NCBI GenBank assembly: GCA_050175015.1
Contig: JBFXJJ010000001.1
Coordinates: 64,001 to 128,000 of the forward strand
Direction: 5' to 3'
DNA: 64,000 nucleotides
Origin: Alphaproteobacteria bacterium
Lineage (GTDB): Bacteria; Pseudomonadota; Alphaproteobacteria; JBFXJJ01
A program made the translations under genes and the position numbers. Numbering within the stretch: position 1 is the stretch's first letter; each line of letters begins with the position of its first letter. This document shows positions 51,408-64,000 of the stretch, one piece after another. The notes below the pieces were generated by a model, which was given only the letters and a program-made list of their open reading frames with translations, was not told where the DNA came from and ran no database searches.

Positions 51408-54400
51408 TTAATATCTTGGCCACTGATTACGCACTTCAGAAAATTCATTTGTATCCTGACAAATTTGTTTCCACACGTTAATTTCTTCAGAAATATCCTG
51501 CTCACGCTCTAAAAAATAAGAATACAGAGCATAAGCAAGGCGTGCGCTATTTTGCCGAATAAGAAGTTTATCTGCTTCTTCTTTAACTGTCGTATCGTTT
51601 TGTGGGCTTGTTTCTTTAGCTAAATATTCTAAACCCTGTAAAACTAACCGCTGAGCTGATTCATTAAGCAAATCTGGCCTTATTTTAATAGCTTCTGTTA
51701 CAAAATGCATAGATGAAGACAAAGCCAATTTTCGCCTCCAACAAACAGCTTGAGCAACGAAAGAAATCAGTCCTTCTAATTTGCTTTTTGAGAAATCAAT
51801 ATTTAATTTTTTAAGTAAAACTAACCCCGCATGTAAATTAATATTTATTGTCTCTTCATCATTTGATGCAATATTATTTGTAATCTCTGTTACTATTTCT
51901 TCTTTCCATTCAGGAAAAATATTTAAAGCTGCCACCTTTAACTGAACATTATGTAGCTCGTATATTTCTAACTCTTTAATTAACTTAGAAAGAGTCCTCT
52001 TAGTTTTAGCATCTACGATTTGATCCAAGTTAGGAATTATCATATAAAACAACACACGGATCAACGCACAAAAACGTGCTTTAAATTCGTCGTAACGAGA
52101 GCCGAAGAGCATAATTTTTTTATTTTCTTCGTTTCTTAATTCTTCTTTATCAGCATCCCACCATTCAACAAGCCTATCTAAAATTCCTTTAATATCTTTT
52201 ATGCTCCAAATTTGCTTATCTCCCAAGCCGATAAGTTCATCACAAAATTCTATTTTTCCTCTTGTTCCAGTATATGATTTATTCCCATTTGTAGTTGGTA
52301 AGGGTAATTTCAGAACGTAATTTTTTACCAGATCATTTACAAAGGTTTCTTTTGGAGAAGGCAAAGTAAGAAGAACAAATTTATAAAAATCCATATTTTC
52401 AGGAAGACCGTTATTATCGACTTTTGACCAGAGAGCTTTAGCAAAATTATTGTTTTGTTCTTCCGTTAATAGACCATATTCATGCAATTTGGCAAGTGAT
52501 ATGATTGCCCATGCTCGTCCATTTGCATTTCCTGAATCTGTATATTTGATTAATTCATTTATCTGTATTTCTGCAAATTCTGATCTAGCCCAATCTTTTA
52601 GTAAATCTTTATCAAATGTTACAAAATAAAATGGATTCATAAATTCATCTTTTGCCATATCAGAAAGATTATCCAATATGGGAAAACTTAACAATTTTGG
52701 AATCCGTTTCCACAATTCATATGGATTATAAGATTCTATTAATCTACGAACCAGATTTTTAATCCCTGCATATTTATTTTTTTGGTTGGATAAATAAATG
52801 GTTTGTAAAAAATACAACAATTGATCTTTTTTCGAGAGAGAAGCTTTAGAACAAAGACGAGAAAGAATATCAGAACCAATTTGAGCAAACAAAATGCCAA
52901 AATTAGGCTTATCATAAGTATTTCCATCTCGTATTTCGGTCTGGTTTTTCTCTAAAATATCCAAAATGAATTCAATCTGTAAATCCGTTTGCTTTTGGTC
53001 AAATTGATTGAAAAAGCTACGGCTAAAAAAATCATCGATGTTTTTTCTATCTCCACAGCGGAGTTGCACTATAAAAGCTAAATAAGGATTGTATTTATAA
53101 ATTCGTTTACATACACCATTGCCTTCTCTTATAGCAAAATTAACCATCGGTACTTTAAAAGGAGAACCTATTTCTTCAATAAAACGCAAGAACTGTTTAG
53201 CAAGAATATAGTCTTTGTCACCACGAATATCCCAATGATAACTGGACTTTATCACACCAATATCAAAATCTGTTTTCTCTATTTTTTCTCTATATATTGT
53301 AGCTTCTCGAGTTAATGCTTGGCTGAACAACAAATTCTCTATTTCAGGATCTATCCCAAATATCTTAAATTGATTCCAATGATTTTCAATATTAGAGCTG
53401 TTTTTATCTCCATAATTACCTTGTTTTGCACGAACAGAAAAAGAAACCTTTCTAAATGACCATAAAATATAAGCCTCTTGAGAAACAAGAGACAAATCAT
53501 CCTTTGTAGGTTTTAAGTTTATCTTTAAACGAATAGTATTTAACGATTGTTCTAATATGGATTGAGCTTCCTCTATGCGCCCTAACTCAGCTAATACACC
53601 TGCTCTTTTTGCCTCCCAGAAGGGTAGCGTTTCATCCTTTTTCCATTTATTAAGAGTTTTTTCAATATCAGGAACTATAAAAGTAAATAAATCTTGTAGA
53701 ACGCATTCGTAGTAAAATCTAGCTCGCTGTTCTGCCGACAAATATCCTTCTATTTTTTCTATTTTATTTTTTATCTTTTTCCATTCATTGTGCTTTCCTT
53801 TTTCCCTAAAATATCGCAGCAAAGAAAATGATAAGTAAATCCATGCATTCTTAATATCATCCCATGGAAGAGATTCATATTTTTTGTCATCATAACATAC
53901 AACCACTTCTTTTTTATGGTTAAGTAATGTTTCAAAAGGCAAATATTTTTTCAAAAGCTTTTTGATAAATTCTGCTTCATAATGATGTAATGGATACAAA
54001 CATCTCTCCAAACGCCAAACTAGCTCATACATAAATTTAATATCAGTAGGAATAGGAAATTTCTTTTCATCCGAAGATATAAACCGATGAAGTTCCGTAA
54101 ACGTTAACAACTTCTCTCGCAAGTTATGTGGCAAAATACACCATCCAGGATAATTTTCTCTGTCTTTTTTCCAAAGTGGAATAAGTTCTTTAAGTTCTTC
54201 TTTTTGATGATACTCTTTAGGCCAATTATAATTATATGGTTTCTTATACTTCAATTTTTTTAAAAAATATTCTAATGCCTTATAATGAAAATTGGATACA
54301 TTGGTGTTTGTTCTCACCTGTTGAGACAAGTCGACAACAACAATATTGCGCTTTTCAAATAGCTTATATTGAGAATGTGTTGGTCTTGATGCTGTTACCA

Positions 54401-55121
54401 AATATATTTTAGGTGAATATTCTGATGTAAAATTATCTCTTAGCCAACCTATCCACTGCAAAAAATTTGGGTCATTTGCAGAAAACCCAATAAGACACAG
54501 AGTGTTTTCTAATAAAGATTGCTGAACCGTATTAACAAAGGGTTCGAATTTTTTAGGATATTTTCTATAATCTTCTTCTGTGATAATAAAAGGTCGTATT
54601 GTAGGAAAACTTCCATGTAGTTTAATAATCCTTGGGTTATCGGCATTTTGCAGATCTTCTGTCGTCGTTACTATATCGTATTTAACTTTATTCCATGGCT
54701 TTACCTTACAAGCCCTTTCTAACAGTGTGTCATAATTTGTGGTAAAAACATCAACCCATGGCAGTTCCAAAAGTTTTGAATGCAATAGGGATGGTTCGTA
54801 TTTCAAGTCGGGGATATTGTCTGTTAGAAATTGATTTAAAACTGTTCTACCAAAAACAGCTTCTACTTCTTCCGCAAGCTTTAATACATCTAAATATCTG
54901 GATTCTTCTGGTTTGTATCCATAGAGTTTTTCATAAAACTTATCGCCTAAAGCATCCCAGCTTGGAAAAGCATTTAGATCGTCTGATGCAGCATTTTTAC
55001 TAAAACCAGCTCCAATCATTACCGCAGCATGGCCCGAATAAAGCCGATCTGCTATTTCATCAATAAGTACGTTTGTCTCATCATAAAATATGCTATCCAT
55101 ATTATCCATCGCAACACTCAA
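51408..55121 (-). CDS. Defence-associated sirtuin (SIR2-domain NADase), Dsr1-like
   Basis: N-terminal SIR2 motifs GAGFS, FTTNYD, IIKLHGS, IGFSANDPNF, followed by a long helical region; 1237 aa. Confidence 0.85.
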   Translation of the reverse strand: MSVAMDNMDSIFYDETNVLIDEIADRLYSGHAAVMIGAGFSKNAASDDLNAFPSWDALGDKFYEKLYGYKPEESRYLDVLKLAEEVEAVFGRTVLNQFLTDNIPDLKYEPSLLHSKLLELPWVDVFTTNYDTLLERACKVKPWNKVKYDIVTTTEDLQNADNPRIIKLHGSFPTIRPFIITEEDYRKYPKKFEPFVNTVQQSLLENTLCLIGFSANDPNFLQWIGWLRDNFTSEYSPKIYLVTASRPTHSQYKLFEKRNIVVVDLSQQVRTNTNVSNFHYKALEYFLKKLKYKKPYNYNWPKEYHQKEELKELIPLWKKDRENYPGWCILPHNLREKLLTFTELHRFISSDEKKFPIPTDIKFMYELVWRLERCLYPLHHYEAEFIKKLLKKYLPFETLLNHKKEVVVCYDDKKYESLPWDDIKNAWIYLSFSLLRYFREKGKHNEWKKIKNKIEKIEGYLSAEQRARFYYECVLQDLFTFIVPDIEKTLNKWKKDETLPFWEAKRAGVLAELGRIEEAQSILEQSLNTIRLKINLKPTKDDLSLVSQEAYILWSFRKVSFSVRAKQGNYGDKNSSNIENHWNQFKIFGIDPEIENLLFSQALTREATIYREKIEKTDFDIGVIKSSYHWDIRGDKDYILAKQFLRFIEEIGSPFKVPMVNFAIREGNGVCKRIYKYNPYLAFIVQLRCGDRKNIDDFFSRSFFNQFDQKQTDLQIEFILDILEKNQTEIRDGNTYDKPNFGILFAQIGSDILSRLCSKASLSKKDQLLYFLQTIYLSNQKNKYAGIKNLVRRLIESYNPYELWKRIPKLLSFPILDNLSDMAKDEFMNPFYFVTFDKDLLKDWARSEFAEIQINELIKYTDSGNANGRAWAIISLAKLHEYGLLTEEQNNNFAKALWSKVDNNGLPENMDFYKFVLLTLPSPKETFVNDLVKNYVLKLPLPTTNGNKSYTGTRGKIEFCDELIGLGDKQIWSIKDIKGILDRLVEWWDADKEELRNEENKKIMLFGSRYDEFKARFCALIRVLFYMIIPNLDQIVDAKTKRTLSKLIKELEIYELHNVQLKVAALNIFPEWKEEIVTEITNNIASNDEETININLHAGLVLLKKLNIDFSKSKLEGLISFVAQAVCWRRKLALSSSMHFVTEAIKIRPDLLNESAQRLVLQGLEYLAKETSPQNDTTVKEEADKLLIRQNSARLAYALYSYFLEREQDISEEINVWKQICQDTNEFSEVRNQWPRY

Positions 55122-55631: not shown

Positions 55632-57317
55632 TTATTGCTCAATATCCTGAGTTGTATCGAAAAAGATATCTACTTCTATTTTAGGAAAAAACATAAAATC
55701 TACAAAAGATACAACCTCGTTTCCTTCCTCGTTTTCTGATATTACAAAGCCATCAAAACGGTTAAAAGTTATAGGACCAATGTGCCTTAACAATCTGCAA
55801 TATGAAAAAAAATCTTTCCCAATTTTATTAAGAAAAGTAAAATATCTTATAGAAATAATATTTTCAACGTCTTCAACAACTTTAATGTTTTCATCTTTTT
55901 CAAATTTTTCAATATCCTTCGGCGTCATTATCTTACTATTTGCCAGATATTTTTGATTTAAATCTCTAAAAAAGTCTTGGAGCCTTCTTAATAAGGTTGC
56001 ATCATTGTTTTCATAGATAGGATTTCTTCCTACTTTCTTAAAATTGTATTTGCTAATTTCTTCTGCCAATTCAGTAAATGTATATTTTTTTTCGTTGTTT
56101 TTCTCTTTTATCAAAGTTGCTATAGCTAGTATTTCTCGTAAATGCTTTTTTGTATTTAGGTTAAACACCATATTTTCTTTTTTATTTTTATCAAATACAA
56201 GAATATCTATTTCGATATTTTCTATAGGTTTTTCTTCATTGTTTTCTTTGCCATTAGGATAAATTTTAACCTCAATGTTTCCAGATATTCTTTCTATTAA
56301 CTGTTCAAAGTCTTTTTGTAATACATTAACATTCTCAAAATGATAAAATATGTTTTTTGATTCATGCAAATTATTTTTTAGATAGTCCTTAAAAGACTCA
56401 ATTTTTTCAGGGGCTTCCTCTTTTTCAAAAGGTTTTACTGAAGAAGGCCTGTTTTCAAGAATTACCTTAGAGTAACAGCTATCATAATGCGACTTTTCAT
56501 TATCTAATTTAACATAAGGAATTGTTTTAAATTTATTAAATCTACTTTTCAAAGTTGCTTCATCACCTAAAACATGAACAGAAAAACCTCTGGTATTGTC
56601 AATTTGATCTTTTATGAATTTTTTGTATGTATTATCAAGCTTTAAGCTTTGGATTGGAAAAGCGTTGTTTCCAGAGTAATCAAATACATATTTATTTCTA
56701 CCCCATAAAGAATAATTTTCCGTAAAACTAAAAATATTTTTTCTGTCATCTAACATATAAATTAACTTCCCAAGAGTAAGAAACTCCAATGACTCAAAAT
56801 CTGTTAATGTCTTTATTGAAAGCATTCTACATATTAAAATATCTACGAGTATGATTTCTTGCTGATTTTGACTCAATTTGTTGAATTCAGTTTTTGATAT
56901 TCCAATGGAGAAAAAATCATCTATAGAATACCTATCGATTTTCATATCTTTGTATAATGCTAAGAGCTCTGTTCTATTAGGAACTATAGGCCCAACCTTT
57001 TCATTTTCGTCAAAGTCTTGTGAGGTCATTTTCCCAAAACTAAGCACTTTTAAAAAATTAGCTCCAGATTGATTTTTTCGTTCCTCTTCAGGAAAATGAA
57101 CTTCATAGCGATTTAGTTCATTATATAACTCATCGATATTAGTAAAATTTTTATTAGGTGAACGTTTTAACCAAAGTCTTAATAAAATAAAAATGTTTTT
57201 TAAGCTTATTGTTTCTTCTGGATTAACAATAAACTTACTCATCTCATCAATAATATCAACCGTTGTATTTTCAGACAAATTATTAAATATCCTTCGTTTA
57301 TTCAATAATATTCGCAA
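55632..57317 (-). CDS. Hypothetical protein with possible C-terminal winged HTH
   Basis: 561-aa ORF; KKYTFTELAEEI...DATLLRRL looks like an HTH; start uncertain. Confidence 0.6.
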   Translation of the reverse strand: MRILLNKRRIFNNLSENTTVDIIDEMSKFIVNPEETISLKNIFILLRLWLKRSPNKNFTNIDELYNELNRYEVHFPEEERKNQSGANFLKVLSFGKMTSQDFDENEKVGPIVPNRTELLALYKDMKIDRYSIDDFFSIGISKTEFNKLSQNQQEIILVDILICRMLSIKTLTDFESLEFLTLGKLIYMLDDRKNIFSFTENYSLWGRNKYVFDYSGNNAFPIQSLKLDNTYKKFIKDQIDNTRGFSVHVLGDEATLKSRFNKFKTIPYVKLDNEKSHYDSCYSKVILENRPSSVKPFEKEEAPEKIESFKDYLKNNLHESKNIFYHFENVNVLQKDFEQLIERISGNIEVKIYPNGKENNEEKPIENIEIDILVFDKNKKENMVFNLNTKKHLREILAIATLIKEKNNEKKYTFTELAEEISKYNFKKVGRNPIYENNDATLLRRLQDFFRDLNQKYLANSKIMTPKDIEKFEKDENIKVVEDVENIISIRYFTFLNKIGKDFFSYCRLLRHIGPITFNRFDGFVISENEEGNEVVSFVDFMFFPKIEVDIFFDTTQDIEQ

Positions 57318-57485: not shown

Positions 57486-58190
57486 ATGACTGAAGCTAAA
57501 AGTAAATTTCTGGGCGAATTTCCCAACGAATACAATAAGTACGAATATAAGAGCAATTTTAGGTTATCAGACGATCGCCGTCATACAGCTATACTTTTAC
57601 AAGGGTTTGAGAGGTATATTAATAAAATCCCAGTTTATCATTTAAATACTATACCTAGTATTACAACAGCAAGCTTTCAACTAGGTATAGACTTTTCTGA
57701 ATATAACTTCAATGTCTTTTACGATAGGCGTGTTATGATTGAACCTAAGACTATTCAAGCCTTAGGAGAGAAGAGTTTTGAACTCTTGAAAAAAGAACTG
57801 ATACGATGTGAGGCAAGATTTATTGGAGAAAGTTACAATGATCCCAATCCAGTTTCTATAACTGATACGGGTGATGGCGTTGATAAGAAAAAAGTTGATT
57901 TCTTTGGCGAAAACCTAACTTGCTCTGTACCTATGATGAACGATGATAACCAACATCATGTAATTATTATTAAGGGTTTCAGAATGTTGCCCTCAGAATG
58001 CGAAGAATTTAATTATCAATTTTTAACTCCCGAAGGTAAATGGCAGGATGAATTCAGTGATTCTTGGGAAATTCTTGAGTATAGAGGAATCTCTTATATT
58101 GAGAAAATGATAAATAAAGGTCTTCAAATAAATCTGGCTTTTGATTTTAAAGATCATTTAGAAAAACTAACACTAGAACAATGTGCTTAA
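57486..58190 (+). CDS. Hypothetical protein
   Basis: 234-aa ORF with GAGG RBS; no recognisable motif. Confidence 0.7.
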   Translation: MTEAKSKFLGEFPNEYNKYEYKSNFRLSDDRRHTAILLQGFERYINKIPVYHLNTIPSITTASFQLGIDFSEYNFNVFYDRRVMIEPKTIQALGEKSFELLKKELIRCEARFIGESYNDPNPVSITDTGDGVDKKKVDFFGENLTCSVPMMNDDNQHHVIIIKGFRMLPSECEEFNYQFLTPEGKWQDEFSDSWEILEYRGISYIEKMINKGLQINLAFDFKDHLEKLTLEQCA

Positions 58191-58262: not shown

Positions 58263-58913
58263 ATGGCCATAATGGACCAAATGAACCCCTATGCCCAAAT
58301 GGCACCAAGTCCCAGCATTATTCGCAGGAATGCTGTTCGTAGAGAACAAAATCTTTATTCAAAAACTTTTAAAAAGTTACGTGGAAGATGGAAAGATCTA
58401 AGCCCTAAAGAAGAGCTCGTAATAATTTTTAATAACATTATCAATTATAGATATTTAATATTTACTCTTGTTTTATCTATAGGCTTTACCAAAAAATTAA
58501 AAGGGTTGAGCAACAAAGAAATGACAGACCTAGTCCGCCGCAGATTGAATACTAATTTTAAAAACAACCTTGGGTATCTACCAAAAATACTGTTTATTTT
58601 AGAAGGACAAGAAAGTCAATGCCTCCATTTGCATGGTGTAATTGGACCTAAATCCGATCTCATCCTTTCACAAAAGCAAAAAGAACGGATAGCTAAAATA
58701 ATGAAAAAAACAGCCTTCGGACCTGATTACAAAAATAACCCAATGTCAAAAAATATATTGCGACTAGGAGAAGTCTATGCTCCTAAGGGATGGCTACGTT
58801 ATATGGCAAAAGACTTTAAGAACACAAAAAAAGCCATCTATTCACAATTTTATATTTGCCATGATTTAAGAAGAGAGGCTAAAAAATATTATGAAAAAAC
58901 GCTCATTTGCTAA
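58263..58913 (+). CDS. Putative HUH (rolling-circle Rep-like) endonuclease
   Basis: FTL motif I candidate, ILE...LHLHG HUH motif II, WLRYMAKD YxxK motif III; basic protein. Confidence 0.6.
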   Translation: MAIMDQMNPYAQMAPSPSIIRRNAVRREQNLYSKTFKKLRGRWKDLSPKEELVIIFNNIINYRYLIFTLVLSIGFTKKLKGLSNKEMTDLVRRRLNTNFKNNLGYLPKILFILEGQESQCLHLHGVIGPKSDLILSQKQKERIAKIMKKTAFGPDYKNNPMSKNILRLGEVYAPKGWLRYMAKDFKNTKKAIYSQFYICHDLRREAKKYYEKTLIC

Positions 58914-59026
58914 GAAAATACTATGTGGTGAAACATGATGTTGTAATGGAAGACGTTGTTTTGGATCCAAATCTTAAAACAAGCGAAGAATTCTTTAATG
59001 GCCTGTAAAATAACGGCTGCTAACCA

Positions 59027-59059
59027 TGATAAAGGCAACTATTACAGTTGCCTTTATCA
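59027..59059. terminator. Perfect 14-bp hairpin (terminator-like)
   Basis: TGATAAAGGCAACT-attac-AGTTGCCTTTATCA between convergent transcription units. Confidence 0.6.
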
Positions 59060-59328
59060 CATAAAATTGTTGTTTTTTGTGTTAACTCTTTTAACTTTAC
59101 CTGAGGGACGTTTCAAATATTTTGCCATATCGGAATCACAGCAAAACACACTCACAATTAAAGGAGTGCTTTTATATATTCTCTCGGAAAGGGTTGCTAC
59201 GCCCCAGTTTTACAAGTTAAAATGTAAAACCAATTTAATTATTACTAGCTCGTTTTAAAAAAGCAAATATTTTTTACTTTTTTTGTATTTGTATTTGTTT
59301 TCAAATACATATTATTACTTTGATAAAA

Positions 59329-59727
59329 CTACTTAGGATTTTTTTCACGCCACCTTCTAAACGTATCAATATCATCTCTTACTAGTTTTAAGCACAGCAT
59401 TATAACCATAGCATCATCAGCAAGACCAATAATAGGAATAAAATCAGGAATAAGGTCAATTGGGCTAAAAACGTAAAGCAAGGCAACAACCATTGCCGCA
59501 ATTGAACTCCAAGGGATTTCTGTATAAGTATTGTCCCAGTAACAAGATACCATATCAAACATAGTCTTAACATCATCAATATATTCACTTAATAAAGATG
59601 AATCTCCGACTTTGTTAATTACTTCGTCTTTGTTTTTTAGAGCTTTCTCTAAATCTTTATTAGAAATAGATGCGGCTTGCTCTTTAATAAAGCTTTCGTT
59701 GATTTGTTCTTTATAATTTTGATTCAT
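59329..59727 (-). CDS. YkvA / DUF1232 family membrane protein
   Basis: ALLYVFSPIDLIPDFIPIIGLADD signature; start reassigned to the MNQNYK ATG with AGAGGA RBS. Confidence 0.9.
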   Translation of the reverse strand: MNQNYKEQINESFIKEQAASISNKDLEKALKNKDEVINKVGDSSLLSEYIDDVKTMFDMVSCYWDNTYTEIPWSSIAAMVVALLYVFSPIDLIPDFIPIIGLADDAMVIMLCLKLVRDDIDTFRRWREKNPK

Positions 59728-59758
59728 TTTAATATCCTCTTGTTTGATAAAACCAAAA

Positions 59759-59786
59759 GACCACCAGATATAACGATCTGGCGGTC
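59759..59786 (-). terminator. Leader terminator/attenuator upstream of the DUF1232 gene
   Basis: Minus strand GACCGCCAGAT-cgttat-ATCTGGTGGTC-TTTT, with a G-U pair only in this orientation. Confidence 0.65.
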
Positions 59787-59880
59787 GGGGTGTTAGCAAC
59801 CTATCCAAGAGAAAAGGCGATCAGATTTTGGTTACAATTCAAAGATTGTAACTTGGACATATACTGATACCACCCCGACC
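59783..59880 (-). ncRNA. c4/CI-like antisense RNA (phage immunity-type)
   Basis: Closing stem GGTCGGGGTG/CACCCCGACC, inner stems, and an unpaired segment CTCTTGGA-TA-GGTTGCTA complementary to the upstream site at 59921-59941. Confidence 0.6.
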
Positions 59881-60399
59881 ATAGATAAGGTCGAGGCGAC
59901 ATTTCTCGGCTTGTCTGCCGCTCTTGGAAAAAGGGTTGCTACGCCCTTGCTTACTTATAATTTAAGCAAGCAAAACAGATTATCTTTAAATATTGCATTT
60001 AAAGCAAGAGATTATTTCTCAATAAAACTATCATTGTAATAGAATGCGATATTCTTAACTCAAGTGTTAAGACATGCGAAGAGTTCTTTATTAGCGTATA
60101 AAATAAGTATTATATAGAATAGTAAAGAAAAATAATCAAAAAAGACAACTGTAGTAGCTTAATTTTTTTTAATCAAATTATTCATAAGCATATTAGTCAA
60201 GCAAATTGTTTATTTTAATGGTTGCATACTGTTCAATAGCTGGGATTAGTTGTTTAAAAACAAATTCATAATGTTAAATGCTTTTATACTTTCCTCATCA
60301 AAATTGTAGTTTAGCAAGATATTGCTATGAATTGTTGATTGTTATGTCATTCAATTTCAACAGCTTTCATTTATTTGTTTTCAAATTATAAGAATAGTT

Positions 60400-61251
60400 C
60401 TAACTGCCGATTATAGCAGCCTCAAATTTTTCTCTGTTTTTAATAATTACAGGAGCTTCTTTTGGGTTATCTAAAGCTTCTGCAATATCTAAACGCAGAC
60501 GTTTGCGGAAATAGTACAACAACGCACGGCGTATATTTATTCGAGAGCAGCCATCTTCCATATTGTAATCATGAGCAATAATTTTTTGCTGATTATCTCC
60601 TAACTTAGGGTTGGGAATTAGAACAACTTCAAAAGTATCATTCCACTCACTATCCTGCTGTCTTGAAACATTGGTTGCTTCTGGGTTGCGAACATCAAGG
60701 GTTCGAGAAAGAATAAAATCCTTAAATTTTTTATCGTCATGACAAAATGCTCGTGTGTGCCACCGAAGCCCATCGCTACCAAAAGCATGTGGTGTAATTC
60801 GTCGCCAAATTGGATCTGGTTTTTGATCGTTCATTGATTGATACAAGATTTCAATTGATGCTTGTTCTCTTATAGTATTTATGATTCTCTGTAAAATAGA
60901 CGAATCAATACGACGATAAGGAATAGGCATTACATCAACATAAGGAAAAACAGAAGCCTTGTTGTCTTGTTCCAAGTATAGTTGTCTTAGGTATTCGTCG
61001 GAATCTGGAGTGAAAAATTTCGGCTTAAATTCTTTTGAAGGAAAATATTTTTTTACACTCTTGTCATAACAGATGTTTTCCTGAGCCAATTCTTGATATT
61101 GGCTTAGATCTTTCGATGCCTGAGGCACTGATATATTAAAAAATTTTATAAGATCAGAGCGGTTTATTCCACCCTCCCAAAATAAACAAAACTCAATAAA
61201 TTCAAGACGTTGTTCAACACTCCAGCGAACATGTGATTTTTTGGCGACCAT
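60400..61251 (-). CDS. capW: WYL-domain transcriptional repressor, CapW-like
   Basis: wHTH RLEFIEFCLFWEGGINRSDL...SVPQASKD, WYL ITPHAF...RWHTRAFC...DFILSR; divergent from the CBASS operon. Confidence 0.88.
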   Translation of the reverse strand: MVAKKSHVRWSVEQRLEFIEFCLFWEGGINRSDLIKFFNISVPQASKDLSQYQELAQENICYDKSVKKYFPSKEFKPKFFTPDSDEYLRQLYLEQDNKASVFPYVDVMPIPYRRIDSSILQRIINTIREQASIEILYQSMNDQKPDPIWRRITPHAFGSDGLRWHTRAFCHDDKKFKDFILSRTLDVRNPEATNVSRQQDSEWNDTFEVVLIPNPKLGDNQQKIIAHDYNMEDGCSRINIRRALLYYFRKRLRLDIAEALDNPKEAPVIIKNREKFEAAIIGS

Positions 61252-61264
61252 AAAACCTCCAATG

Positions 61265-61332
61265 AGTATATAAACTATATTGACATATAAACTATATTGA
61301 CATATAAACTATTTTCATATAGTTTATATACT
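61265..61332. promoter_or_regulatory. Divergent promoter / putative CapW operator with 17-bp periodic repeats
   Basis: TATAAACTAT at 61269, 61286, 61303 and inverted ATAGTTTATA at 61319; TTGACA at 61280 and 61297. Confidence 0.65.
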
Positions 61333-61371
61333 AATAAAGACAATCAGGTCAATAGCAAATTGGAGGCAGAT

Positions 61372-61605
61372 ATGTCAAAAAATGATCGATATGTAGTAAA
61401 CCACCCAGATGGTTGGGCGGTAAAAAAGTCTGGAGCGACGCGTGCAAGTGGTGTCTACGAAACACAAAAAGAAGCCATTGGTGCTGCTAAAGAAATTGTG
61501 GGGCACGCGGGTGGCGGAGAAGTCCGTATTCAGGGAACCAATGGAAAATGGCGTGATTCTGACACGGTATCTCCTGGTAACGATCCGCATCCACCCAAGG
61601 GTTAA
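61372..61605 (+). CDS. DUF2188 domain protein
   Basis: ATG at 61372 with GGAGG RBS; YVV..H..GWAVK..GA.RAS..YETQKEAI, DPHPPKG end. Confidence 0.85.
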   Translation: MSKNDRYVVNHPDGWAVKKSGATRASGVYETQKEAIGAAKEIVGHAGGGEVRIQGTNGKWRDSDTVSPGNDPHPPKG

Positions 61606-61629
61606 TATCATAAAAAACGGAAAAGCATC

Positions 61630-61947
61630 ATGAACATTAAAGGTCTTAAGGAGTTTCAGAAGAAGCTTGAGCAATTGGAAGAAAATGCAAAATCTCTCGA
61701 TGGCCAACACAATATTGCTATTGCAGAACTGCTGACCCCAGAGTTTGTTTGCCATCACACGCAGTTTTCGTCTGTTGATGAGCTATTTGAAAACAGTGGT
61801 TTTCAGATTGAAAACTCAGATGATTTTGCCGCAATACCTGATAAAGAGTGGGATACATATATTCGTTCGGTTTCAAGTTTCAGTGATTGGCATACTATGC
61901 TTTCAAAAGCATCGGAAGAATGGGCCAAGAAAAAGCTTGGCCTTTAG
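61630..61947 (+). CDS. Small hypothetical protein in the CBASS operon
   Basis: 105-aa ORF tightly packed between DUF2188 and patatin genes. Confidence 0.8.
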   Translation: MNIKGLKEFQKKLEQLEENAKSLDGQHNIAIAELLTPEFVCHHTQFSSVDELFENSGFQIENSDDFAAIPDKEWDTYIRSVSSFSDWHTMLSKASEEWAKKKLGL

Positions 61948-61975
61948 AAATTATCCTTAAAAAAGAGATACGGAT

Positions 61976-63091
61976 ATGAGTAACAAACCTTTTCGAGTTT
62001 TAAGTTTGGATGGTGGTGGAATGAGGGGAATATATTCTGCCATTTACCTAAAAAAGCTTGCAGATTCTTGCGCAAAAAACAAGGGATTTAAGACACTTGA
62101 TATCGGCAAAGCATTTGATTTGATTGTCGGCACAAGCACCGGTGGCATCTTGGCATGTGCGCTTGCGTTTGGAGCGCCCCTTTCTAAGGTTATAGAACTG
62201 TATAGGAATGAAGGGCCTCGAATTTTTCAATCTCAACTTCCATCAGGTATTAACGTAGAACTTGGCAGGCAGCTCTTAATGCGCCCAATAGAATTAAGAA
62301 GTGGCGCGCAAGCATTAAAAAGAGCTTTGAGCCACGTTTTCTTAGGAGAAACAATGGAAAGCCTTTATGAGCGCAGGAAAATTGCTTTGGCTATTCCTTC
62401 CGTCAATATGCATACACATAGTGCGTGGGTTTTCAAAACCCCACATCTTTTAGGCAACAACGGAAGAGATAACAAATATACCCTTGTTGATGTTTGTTTG
62501 GCCACTAGTGCCGCACCGATATTCAGAAGTTTAGAAGCCATAGAAGAACCGGGTGGTTATGGAACATATCATGTCTTTACAGATGGTGGCTTGTGGGCAA
62601 ACAACCCTGTTTTAGTTGCTTTACTCGAAGCTTTGCGAATGACGGAACATGGACGTTCAATAGAAATTTTTTCTTTAGGAACATGCCCTAAACCTGTCGG
62701 TGAAAATCTGTCAAAAGAAGAAGTCAACAGAGGACTTCTTGAGTGGAAATTCGGAGGAAAAATTTCCGAGCTTTCAATAGACGCTCAGGAATTTGCATAC
62801 GATCATATGGCAAGAATGTTCGCCGGAGCAATTAATCGTCCCTGCAATATATTACGCTTTCCTACAGCAAATATTCCTCCTGATGATATAAAGTTTTTAA
62901 ACTTGGATGAAACCTCCAAAGAAGGATTAGAGGCGTTAACGCGTTTGGCTCTTCGTGATGCAGATATTGCAAATTCAAAAATTCAGGATCCAAAGAGTGA
63001 AGAAGGCGCAATGATCAAACGGTTGTTTGATGACATGCCAAAGTCAGAAAAGCCAAAGCCTTACGGCCTTGCGGTGGAATGTAATAGCTAA
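61976..63091 (+). CDS. capV: Patatin-like phospholipase, CBASS effector (CapV-like)
   Basis: DGGGMRG, GTSTG nucleophile, DGGLWANNP; directly upstream of a CD-NTase. Confidence 0.88.
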   Translation: MSNKPFRVLSLDGGGMRGIYSAIYLKKLADSCAKNKGFKTLDIGKAFDLIVGTSTGGILACALAFGAPLSKVIELYRNEGPRIFQSQLPSGINVELGRQLLMRPIELRSGAQALKRALSHVFLGETMESLYERRKIALAIPSVNMHTHSAWVFKTPHLLGNNGRDNKYTLVDVCLATSAAPIFRSLEAIEEPGGYGTYHVFTDGGLWANNPVLVALLEALRMTEHGRSIEIFSLGTCPKPVGENLSKEEVNRGLLEWKFGGKISELSIDAQEFAYDHMARMFAGAINRPCNILRFPTANIPPDDIKFLNLDETSKEGLEALTRLALRDADIANSKIQDPKSEEGAMIKRLFDDMPKSEKPKPYGLAVECNS

Positions 63092-63164
63092 AAATAATCC
63101 TATTTTCATAGGTCTTCTTGGGGGCCTATTAACAGCCTGTTTACTAGATGAAAAGGAATGCAAG

Positions 63165-64000
63165 ATGCTTGATTGTTCAAAAGAAATAAGAAAATTTCAT
63201 GACGAAGAGGTTACTCTTCAGTCTGCCCAACAGAATGAAATGAGAGAAAGACGAAATTCTAATCGTGATCGGCTAAAGAGTGGACTTAAAAACAATGGGA
63301 AACCAAGTCCTATATATTTACGCTCACAAGGCTCTTACGCCATGCGTACAATGGTTCAAGATGCAGAAAACGATTACGATATTGATGATGGTATGTATTT
63401 CAAACAGGAAGACCTAAAAACAAGTCAAGGCAATGACATGTCCGCATTATCCGTAAGGAACATGATTTGTGATATCATTCAGGATGAACGATTTAATAAC
63501 AAACCTGAAGTGAAGAACAATTGTGTAAGAGTTTACTATAATGACGGCTCTCATATTGATGTTCCTGCGTACCGTATAATAATAGAAAAGGATTTTTTGG
63601 GCAATGAAACAGAGAACTTTGAACTAGCCAGTTCCGATTGGAAAGCAAGCGATCCAAGAAAGGTGACAGACTGGCTAAGAGATACCGCAAAAGATAAAAG
63701 CCCAGATGATGATCCAGATCAATTCCGCAGAATCGTCCGCTTGTTAAAAGCTTTTTCAAAAAGTCGCTCAGGTTGGAAAACAGACAAAGGTGCAAGTGGC
63801 TTTACTATTACTAAGCTTACACAAGAAGTTTTTGTGGCTGCTTCAGGACGTGATGATGAATCTCTACATAAAACAATGAAAGCTATTAAACAACGCTTAG
63901 ACTTAAATTTAAGCGTTTACCATCCTGTTATCCATGGAGAAAAGCTCGCAAAAAATGATGATGTTAGAACACGTCGTTTTAAAGAACGGTTAGAACAAAA
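63165..64000 (+). CDS. cGAS/DncV-like nucleotidyltransferase (CD-NTase), truncated by window edge; absent from ORF track
   Basis: ATG at 63165 after AAAGGA; MLDCSKEIRKFHDEEV...RSQGSYAMRTMVQDAENDYDIDDG...HIDVPAY; GS-x-DxD plus third Asp; frame appears open to the edge. Confidence 0.9.
   Translation, partial: MLDCSKEIRKFHDEEVTLQSAQQNEMRERRNSNRDRLKSGLKNNGKPSPIYLRSQGSYAMRTMVQDAENDYDIDDGMYFKQEDLKTSQGNDMSALSVRNMICDIIQDERFNNKPEVKNNCVRVYYNDGSHIDVPAYRIIIEKDFLGNETENFELASSDWKASDPRKVTDWLRDTAKDKSPDDDPDQFRRIVRLLKAFSKSRSGWKTDKGASGFTITKLTQEVFVAASGRDDESLHKTMKAIKQRLDLNLSVYHPVIHGEKLAKNDDVRTRRFKERLEQ

Follow-up and report, generated by a model that had tools for sequence, protein, structure and literature searches.

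A terminator-coupled RNA cassette of the phage c4/sRNA-Xcc1 kind precedes a DUF1232 gene in an alphaproteobacterial defence island

The stretch of 64,000 nucleotides analysed here (hereafter the window) contains a defence island with Dsr2, a type II CBASS, PDC-S16 and an integrase, with a WYL regulator nearby. What kind of RNA is encoded ahead of the DUF1232 gene of this island, and is it tied to that gene? An initial annotation, made from the sequence alone, had proposed a c4/CI-like antisense attenuator wired to DUF1232. The minus-strand segment 59973-59749 is a conserved structured RNA of the phage c4/sRNA-Xcc1 kind, with a terminator just before the small membrane-protein gene (Table 1). 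Its link with DUF1232 is not special, because the same RNA cassette precedes many (about 25) unrelated genes.

Table 1. Coordinates of the cassette, of its solo site and of the neighbouring features
Feature	Position	Strand	Basis or remark
P0 hairpin, 11 bp, loop 5	59947..59973	-	MFE and centroid fold; directly 5' of the a/b site
a1 site (59941-59934) in small GGG...CCC clamp	59934..59946	-	pairs with a' (59801-59794)
b1 site	59921..59928	-	pairs with b' (59811-59804)
P2 hairpin, 4 bp, loop of 6	59907..59920	-	predicted fold
Alternative hairpin (59896-59889 with 59880-59873)	59873..59896	-	predicted fold; ties up the closing-stem 5' arm
Closed c4-like RNA body: closing stem, inner stem and hairpin, b', a', GCCA (59782-59779)	59779..59880	-	repeat I5, fold, sRNA-Xcc1 match
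Intrinsic terminator, 11-12 bp stem, loop 6, T-run	59749..59786	-	terminator scan and fold; hairpin 59786-59759
Shine-Dalgarno region, proposed weak second b-target	59735..59742	-	score 7.5, rank 6 of 31, shuffle fraction 0.11
DUF1232 (YkvA-type) membrane-protein gene, 132 aa	59329..59727	-	Pfam PF06803 E 4.4e-13; phrog_14750 E 1.5e-14
Solo copy: hairpin (59231-59206), then a/b site (59205-59181)	59181..59231	-	sequence and fold; no RNA body after it
Strong palindromic terminator hairpin, 14 bp	59027..59059	.	repeat I3; closes the short unit starting at the solo site

Read along the minus strand, the cassette opens with a hairpin, after which come the a/b site and a pair of small hairpins; a closed RNA with the sequence complementary to the site follows, then GCCA and finally a terminator. 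The target site, the small alternative hairpins and the terminator of the initial annotation are all present, and so is its fold closed by a perfect 10-bp stem (59880-59871 with 59792-59783), within which b' and a' are unpaired and complementary to the a/b site. Hairpin P0, the GCCA and the second hairpin with its copy of the a/b site had escaped it. Hairpins of different sequence occupy the position of P0 in P1, in P4 and in each of the four remaining copies that this genome carries, and a hairpin similar to P2 follows b1 in P1. When the leader is folded alone, a1 forms a stem-loop, and the 102-nt RNA body, which starts with GGU at 59880 and ends with GCCA, folds alone into a closed stem with a free GCCA (-36.4 kcal/mol). 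In the minimum-energy fold, the a/b site pairs in cis with b'/a'. The fold z-scores are -6.72 for 59720-59960 and -9.50 for 59750-59975, with 0/200 shuffles as good in both cases; for the latter segment, the MFE and centroid structures are the same.

As the initial annotation had noted, the closing stem and the terminator (11 pairs, followed by a T-run) have 4 nt in common: these end the closing stem and lie, together with GCCA, in the 5' arm of the terminator. A scan of the region returned 4 terminator-like sites vs 0.8 expected, and the terminator is arranged likewise after the RNA body in other window-type copies. Leader energies are -94.0 kcal/mol for the terminated fold vs -72.3 kcal/mol with the closing stem forced, and the terminated fold of the intact transcript is predicted to be favoured by 12.7-21.7 kcal/mol. 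With the closing stem formed, 8 bp of the terminator are still left in the window; in most homologues, this stem takes 3-5 of the 6-8 nt of the terminator 5' arm. The DUF1232 ATG lies 51 nt past GCCA, and the space between the terminator and this start codon is too short for a promoter. From 59946 down to 59727, the part downstream of the terminator included, no minus-strand promoter-like site was detected.

About 25 window-type copies were found, 5 of them in this 2.5-Mb genome (vs 0 in the reversed genome). DNA searches revealed homologues in 4/61 genomes, and a covariance model (R1) built from the window sequence alone gave 15 full-length matches in 40 sources and matches in 8/151 genomes of the class. 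In all 13 window-type loci compared, the RNA is followed by a gene on the same strand whose start lies 34-75 nt away; in most further loci this distance is 37-54 nt. These cargo genes are varied and encode outer-membrane barrels, Cache sensors, a type ISP restriction enzyme, a hydrogenase-like protein, a PD-(D/E)XK nuclease or DUF1232. Locus L188 (genome G040, unpublished) provides one row of the homologue comparisons and alignments; no claim depends solely on it. Pattern searches yielded mostly candidates that were rejected. The closing-stem pattern gave 120 stretches in genome contigs, nearly all due to chance in GC-rich genomes (only L123 looked genuine), and 30 chance-like stretches in viral contigs (4 inspected); with a stricter pattern of three parts, the viral contigs yielded 0 stretches and the metagenomes 2, each of them GC-rich and without leader parts.

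The helices between site and loop are kept via different sequences in each copy. In a 15-row alignment fitted to the tested structure, 97.4% of the cells are paired and 36 of the 41 pairs changed on both sides; 0/500 shuffles reach these values and slid controls are 38.5-45.6% paired. In the helices between loop and target, 14/16 pairs changed on both sides, with 6/8 in a1:a' (98.3% of cells paired) and 8/8 in b1:b' (100% paired). Both sides also changed in 3/4 pairs of P2 and in 7/8 pairs of the alternative hairpin (96.3% paired). Compensatory change is thus seen in a1:a' and b1:b', in P2, in the alternative hairpin and in the inner helices. An alignment-free matrix of b1 against b' has a diagonal mean of 8.2 vs 4.7 off the diagonal, and the diagonal is the strict row maximum in 8/12 rows. 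For the closing stem, alignment A7, which was fitted to the other fold, is 85.9% paired with only 2 pairs changed on both sides, a level that 118/500 shuffles reach. The MAFFT alignments A2-A5, in which variable helices are shifted by 1-2 columns, were excluded from the pair counts.

Searches with the Rfam models C4, c4-a1b1 and sRNA-Xcc1 gave no match at cut-off, leaving formal membership unsupported. For C4 (RF01695, cut-off 45 bits), nothing reached the gathering score in the window and nothing appeared at E 10 in 58900-60450 or in the whole genome, whereas the positive controls P1 and P4 score 68.8 and 74.9 bits. The c4-a1b1 model (RF03163, cut-off 46.7 bits) has no window match at E 10 and gives 51 bits for P1 and 44.1 bits for P4. 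The best Rfam match of the closed body is sRNA-Xcc1 (RF02221; 27.2 bits, E 0.042 over 59775-59880), which lies below the 53-bit cut-off. Scores for this model are graded from the window (27.2) through the homologues L006 (30.0) and L123 (43.3) to true members (53-70.3 bits). No riboswitch family matched the window.

The c4/CI-like layout itself is borne out by the same order of parts as in P1 and P4, by the sub-threshold sRNA-Xcc1 match and by the full c4 layout of sRNA-Xcc1 loci. The segment 59880-59779 has the structure of C4, i.e. a closed stem with two hairpins, b' in the second loop, a' before the 3' arm and RCC(A), and it is preceded, as in c4 modules, by a1/b1 complementary to a'/b'. 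Two properties of such modules are lacking, namely a downstream a2/b2 with b2 over the RBS and an antirepressor or kil/icd cargo in a prophage immunity region (here, the cargo is DUF1232, flanked by defence genes and a WYL regulator).

The c4 of P1/P7 (annotated in P1 as a1, b1, c4, a2 and b2) shares with the window a hairpin, a1 in a small G/C-clamped loop, b1, a hairpin, a strand able to sequester the 5' arm and a closed RNA with RCC(A); in both, the RNA starts with GGU, b' is in the second hairpin loop and a' immediately precedes the 3' arm. In c4, specificity is determined by the a and b sequences, according to PMC5320573. The window differs from P1/P7 by its inner domain, by the intrinsic terminator directly after the RNA, by the lack of above-chance a2/b2 and by a cargo that is not icd/ant. 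The P4 CI region (seqA, seqC) has a very similar G/C-clamped a-site stem-loop followed by a b-site and a hairpin. However, in P4 a hairpin plus U-run stands before the RNA and an a2/b2 site covers the RBS of the next gene, whereas the terminator of the window follows the RNA. Pairing of P4 CI with seqA reportedly enhances termination at an intrinsic terminator. Like the window, true sRNA-Xcc1 loci have a closed body within a full c4 layout and are multi-copy in mobile contexts; unlike it, they mostly lack a terminator, have b2 over the Shine-Dalgarno sequence and carry a different inner hairpin motif. In Acinetobacter baumannii, many chromosomal C4-derived RNAs per genome have been described as 'Group 1' sRNAs (Weiss et al. 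2016, PMC5320573); they differ in their specificity loops and arise by processing of longer precursors at GGW. Unlike the window, they match Rfam C4, and a terminator-coupled leader role is not described for them in the available excerpt of that report (PMC5320573). Three-hairpin attenuators of the trp-leader type resemble the window by three mutually exclusive pairings (1:2, 2:3, 3:4) and by an intrinsic terminator before the gene, a likeness in mode of working and not in family membership. The window, unlike these attenuators, has no leader peptide, and its deciding signal is probably RNA-RNA pairing or processing. The leader form is uncatalogued in Rfam at its cut-offs, and each copy has a locus-specific pairing code.

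The second, weaker target that the initial annotation had placed over the RBS of DUF1232 did not withstand comparison with controls: 8 contiguous pairs with the loop (one of them G-U) do exist at 59742-59735 but are at chance level, as they rank 6 of 31 against non-cognate loops and are equalled by 11% of shuffled loops. Such a target ranks 3 or better in only 1/13 window-type loci, and in 7/18 sRNA-Xcc1-type loci. RNAduplex ranking of loops against whole flanks and ranking of contiguous stretches over 170 nt had been tried and were too noisy; the test restricted to the RBS was used instead.

Taken as a whole, these data suggest that 59973-59749 is probably a divergent chromosomal antisense cassette of the c4/P4 CI/sRNA-Xcc1 class, whose RNA would combine with the terminator and with a1b1, a copy of the RNA's own target, into a self-addressed leader of DUF1232 that gates read-through. 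Its functioning could be viewed as follows. In the intact transcript, a1b1 would pair with b'a', the alternative hairpin would hold the closing stem by its 5' arm, and the 3' arm, thereby set free, would form the terminator together with GCCA; transcription would therefore stop by default, leaving DUF1232 off. If the closing stem forms instead, it would take part of the 5' arm of the terminator and allow read-through. The closed body ending with GCCA would probably be excised at its GGU start, as RNase P does for c4, and could then act in trans on sites bearing its own 'barcode', i.e. its own leader and the solo site. Since these are the sites addressed, the cassette would set its own read-through. 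The textbook phage c4/CI immunity device would thus be extended to leaders in which an intrinsic terminator gates bacterial genes, both ordinary and accessory.

The solo site, in which one base of b differs while a G-U pair with b' is kept, is, apart from the a/b site of the cassette, the genome's sole strict a+b site: the a/b 17-mer occurs twice in the window (0.10 expected) and nowhere else in this genome. It heads a short terminated unit (fold z -4.7). A genome-wide search permitting G-U pairs showed no enrichment of a/b sites (167 matches vs 202 in the reversed genome).

Extended to all copies, the favoured reading leads to a more speculative proposal, for which we have limited confidence: terminator-coupled c4-like leaders may be mutually orthogonal 'barcoded' switches, each RNA feeding back only on leaders with matching a/b, with the solo site as a second address or a sponge and DUF1232 as a membrane-active cargo kept off by default. 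If so, mobile islands could insulate and dose each cargo gene independently, with five barcodes in this 2.5-Mb genome. The cassettes would then amount to orthogonal expression switches made of RNA only, of natural origin and disseminated by mobile elements, and such feedback would account for many 'orphan' structured RNAs adjoining defence and surface-protein genes.

The terminator directly after the RNA could also be that of a stand-alone trans-acting sRNA gene with targets elsewhere, such as the solo site and its terminated unit; DUF1232 would be merely adjacent in a mobile cassette and a1b1 would serve for self-masking only. Northern blot and RACE data describing sRNA-Xcc1 as a separate RNA of 88 nt (PMC2996969) are in keeping with this alternative. 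It is nevertheless unlikely, as the same-strand gene follows so closely in 13/13 window-type loci and in most further ones that no room is left for a promoter between RNA and gene, and no promoter-like site precedes DUF1232.

A protein- or ligand-sensing leader that has no trans antisense action is quite unlikely. The a1b1:b'a' pairing would be the closing helix of a sensor domain, and a factor bound to the inner loops would pick the alternative hairpin, the closing stem or the terminator. The three-way mutually exclusive pairing is of the classical attenuator type, distant genomes share the inner single-stranded motifs but not the helix sequences, and some of the cargo is ordinary and chromosomal (Cache sensors, hydrogenase-like protein), all of which agree with such a sensor. 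By contrast, the downstream genes are functionally incoherent, unlike riboswitch regulons; the layout is homologous to those of two established antisense RNAs, P1 c4 and P4 CI; hairpin loops expose the a-site and b', in the manner of kissing antisense pairs; and the solo a/b site has no sensor domain.

The RNA at this locus tells little of the role of DUF1232. DUF1232 homologues occur in 67/401 genomes of the class. An Rfam search of 20 DUF1232 loci found nothing but is insensitive for an RNA of the window type; a motif-plus-stem detector, which recovered 11 of 13 positive controls, was therefore added and found the RNA in 0/29 other DUF1232 loci. A DUF1232 paralogue 15 kb away, which forms a second WYL-DUF1232 pair in the same island, also lacks the RNA. 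The special wiring initially proposed is unsupported. That DUF1232 is a toxin or abortive-infection effector silenced by the RNA and firing upon its depletion or titration during phage infection would fit the defence island with its two WYL-DUF1232 pairs, the icd gene (annotated as inhibitor of cell division) directly after c4 in P1 and the Xanthomonas integron cassettes in which sRNA-Xcc1 precedes the toxin gene symE (bioRxiv 10.1101/2025.06.18.660453), but is improbable given that the protein has no PADLOC match, that its homologues at the scanned loci lack the RNA, that most genes found behind this RNA do not resemble toxins and that a literature search returned no paper containing both 'DUF1232' and 'phage'.

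A blastn search against 50,697 phage records gave no match. Contigs with natural variants came from 4 DNA runs, which yielded presence and variants only. One contig from another metagenome, roughly 90% identical, retains the RNA and the gene start, with no change listed in a1b1, b'a' or the closing arms.

The initial annotation described the anatomy of the element correctly (table), because the 226-nt transcript folds strongly (-95.1 kcal/mol, z-score -9.50, 0 of 200 shuffles as good) and its a/b site, the target complementary to a' and b' in the RNA body, pairs in cis with b'a' in this fold. The weaker second target claimed over the RBS of the downstream gene (132-aa DUF1232 protein, Pfam E 4.4e-13) does not hold up: the stretch 59742-59735 is present, yet it ranks 6 of 31 when loops from elsewhere are compared with it, and 11% of shuffled ones equal it. 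The 5' hairpin, the GCCA and the second hairpin with a/b site (59231-59181) had gone unnoticed in that annotation.

Features of the element, its flanks, the surrounding island and the own-genome copies (C1, C12, C19 and C45, own-genome contigs; L162, a locus)
Feature	Position	Strand	Basis or remark
5' hairpin, 11 bp	59973-59947	minus	predicted fold
a-site within short G/C clamp	59946-59934	minus	sequence and fold
b-site	59928-59921	minus	sequence
4-bp hairpin after b-site	59920-59907	minus	predicted fold
Alternative-hairpin strand	59896-59889	minus	predicted fold; pairs with 59880-59873
RNA body, perfect 10-bp closing stem	59880-59871 with 59792-59783	minus	
Inner stem and hairpin		minus	inside closed body, 5' of b'
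b', then a'	59811-59804, 59801-59794	minus	inside closed body
GCCA	59782-59779	minus	after closing stem
Terminator, 11-12 bp, T-run	59786-59749	minus	reuses last 4 nt of closing stem
Shine-Dalgarno, then ATG of DUF1232 gene	ATG 59727	minus	~20 nt past terminator
Solo hairpin and a/b site	59231-59181	minus	
Solo palindromic terminator, 14 bp	59059-59027		
73-nt repeat	60034-60106 / 58941-59013		74% identity
Further repeat pairs	60372-60386/59292-59306, 60279-60293/59167-59181, 60141-60157/59039-59055		
Island spans	51408-55121, 61297-63998, L162:207-5345	minus, plus, 	together Dsr2 (PADLOC, 1235 bits), DUF2188/PDC-S16 and type II CBASS
ORFs between Dsr2 and cassette	55632-57317, 57486-58190, 58263-58913	minus, plus, plus	561, 234 and 216 aa
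WYL regulator	60400-61251		divergent from CBASS operon
DUF1232 paralogue	L162:10634-11008	minus	38% identity
WYL (+WCX) regulator	L162:9538-10485	plus	with paralogue, C1:137538-139008
Own-genome copy	C1:281050-281224	plus	cargo Cache/HAMP sensor
Own-genome copy	C12:36141-36310	minus	cargo iron-hydrogenase-like protein
Own-genome copy	C19:20420-20590	minus	cargo Cache sensor
Own-genome copy	C45:2286-2477	minus	cargo type ISP restriction enzyme

The element had been read as c4/CI-like. An Rfam scan of the window gave no family at its cut-off, the covariance-model search against C4 and c4-a1b1 proposed as a check found no match even at E 10 over 58900-60450, nor did isrK, and RF01695 retrieved nothing from the whole genome. 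The best Rfam match, over 59775-59880, is sRNA-Xcc1 (RF02221; 27.2 bits, cut-off 53), on which the inner domains of homologues score 30.0 and 43.3 bits. In true sRNA-Xcc1 loci, as in the window, the loop is complementary to an a/b site upstream; these loci have another a/b site downstream, with its b part lying over the Shine-Dalgarno sequence. This is the order annotated in P1 (a1, b1, c4, a2, b2, icd) and the layout of P4, whose CI RNA reaches 74.9 bits on RF01695. The clamped a-site stem-loop of the P4 leader closely resembles that of the window, and in P1, as in the window, b1 is followed by a hairpin and there is a strand that can base-pair with the c4 5' arm. As this layout is common to sRNA-Xcc1, P1 and P4 loci, the window RNA matches that class in layout and probably represents a divergent relative, although all formal covariance-model membership tests failed; the earlier reading thus stands for the order of parts but not for formal membership.

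A DNA search of 61 class genomes gave matches in four, the own genome included, and one other genome (G002) carries three full copies. RF02221 at E 0.001 matched 25 of 151 class genomes (6 over cut-off), the copies often being several or tandem. One locus (G014:C1:749745-751817) holds three tandem sRNA-Xcc1 copies ~994 nt apart; in the two examined, a near-identical 104-aa gene follows each, the b-codes differ and the b2 over the RBS matches.

R1, a covariance model for which the window sequence was the only input, yielded 15 full-length matches in 40 sources and hits in 8 of 151 class genomes, at most six copies per genome; a motif-plus-stem detector found five copies in the own genome vs none in its reversed sequence. 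One row of the window-type counts is a locus from an unpublished genome (L188, G040), on which alone no claim is based. The four further own-genome copies are full and each has its own a/b code, that on C19 sharing b' with the window copy and differing in a. In the 15-row alignment, 97.4% of cells are paired (38.5-45.6% in slid controls), with changes on both sides at 36 of 41 pairs and at 8/8 pairs of the b helix; none of 500 shuffles reached the observed values. Since the fold under test had been used to fit this alignment, an alignment-free test of b1 against b' was added (fixed windows, 12 copies): cognate pairs average 8.2 vs 4.7 for non-cognate ones and 8 of 12 rows have their strict maximum on the diagonal, the two rule-breaking copies both being from the own genome, with identical b' and different a. 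The loop-target covariation sought in homologues is present. The closing stem is 85.9% paired with little covariation in an alignment fitted to the alternative fold, and copies with other closing-stem sequences were found. All window-type copies differ from classical sRNA-Xcc1 loci by another inner motif and by an intrinsic terminator directly after the RNA, whose 5' arm includes the closing-stem end plus RCC(A). Nor is an RBS target conserved in them (rank 3 or better in 1/13, vs 7/18 classical loci).

A same-strand gene starts 34-75 nt past the RNA in 13/13 window-type loci, and mostly 37-54 nt past it in further loci. These cargo genes are unrelated to each other: besides those of the own genome, which include both Cache-domain sensors, they encode three outer-membrane beta-barrels, a PD-(D/E)XK nuclease, a small-protein family in G002 and several proteins whose N-termini resemble signal or lipoprotein sequences. 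Envelope proteins make up ~13 of 25, a count made partly by eye. Classical loci lie upstream of, among others, genes for Rha-like antirepressors, HTH regulators, a nuclease and a DNA methylase. DUF1232 homologues occur in 67 of 401 class genomes; the RNA was found at 0 of 29 homologue loci by a detector recovering 11/13 positive controls, Rfam found nothing at 20 of these, and no c4-like leader precedes a paralogue 15 kb away. A special wiring of the RNA to DUF1232 is not supported, given its presence before unrelated genes and absence from these 29 loci: the link is incidental, the RNA feature itself real.

The hairpin and a/b site recur 740 nt downstream, past the DUF1232 gene, without the RNA body. 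A 17-mer shared by leader and solo site occurs twice in the window (0.10 expected), and a 15-mer contained in it is absent from the rest of the 2.5-Mb genome. A single base change distinguishes the solo b, and a G-U pair with b' is retained; ~120 nt after the a/b site comes a terminator, and a z-score of -4.7 was obtained for the fold of this unit. It might serve as another target or as a sponge, or be what is left of a lost cassette. An intergenic unit of ~370 nt is repeated on either side of the RNA-DUF1232 cassette, and both copies of its 73-nt repeat resemble, on the plus strand, a protein C-terminal end followed by a stop codon, which suggests insertion of the cassette into a gene end, or its duplication together with one. 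In a ~90% identical contig from another metagenome, none of the changes listed falls in the a/b site, b'a' or the closing arms; this contig keeps RNA and gene start together and diverges beyond 60008, which fits a small mobile cassette.

In predicted folds, the alternative hairpin, closing stem and terminator are successive, mutually exclusive pairings, as in an attenuator. The intact transcript favours the fold combining a/b:b'a', alternative hairpin and terminator, at -94.0 kcal/mol, vs -72.3 for the closing-stem fold; the excised 102-nt body has a closed stem and free GCCA (-36.4 kcal/mol). The best reading, held with moderate confidence, is as follows. The leader would terminate by default, leaving DUF1232 off; the closed body would be released at its GGU start, and would then pair in trans with sites matching its code, in its own leader and at the solo site, modulating read-through. 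For c4 such release has been shown, and for Acinetobacter C4-like RNAs it has been proposed (PMC5320573). A stand-alone trans-acting sRNA is an unlikely alternative to this reading, and a factor-sensing leader, in which the a/b helix would be structural only, is somewhat less likely again.

c4-type RNAs are already in print, as are their multi-copy chromosomal relatives (PMC5320573) and sRNA-Xcc1 in mobile cassettes (PMC2996969, PMC12189769, bioRxiv 10.1101/2025.06.18.660453). Literature searches on sRNA-Xcc1, c4 antisense RNA/RNase P and c4-a1b1 yielded no description of a terminator-coupled, self-addressed leader, which is apparently an undescribed form of c4-type RNA.

That DUF1232 is a toxin or abortive-infection effector, an idea compatible with the other readings, is improbable: it has precedents in icd, the annotated inhibitor of cell division after c4 in P1, and in sRNA-Xcc1 upstream of symE (bioRxiv 10.1101/2025.06.18.660453), but no direct support in this analysis. 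DUF1232 has no PADLOC match, and a literature search found no paper joining it with phage. The defence-island setting is borne out, with Dsr2, PDC-S16, WYL regulators and type II CBASS (patatin effector, CD-NTase, E1/E2 fusion and JAB), the last followed by DUF2958 and a tyrosine integrase, around the cassette. The three ORFs between Dsr2 and the cassette belong to no Pfam, PHROG or PADLOC family, their sole match being a weak, sub-threshold one of the 216-aa ORF to the replication-protein family PF23343 (E 0.003). The DUF1232 paralogue, also in this island, adjoins a second WYL regulator and has a zinc phospholipase C gene nearby, so that the WYL-DUF1232 pairing occurs twice.
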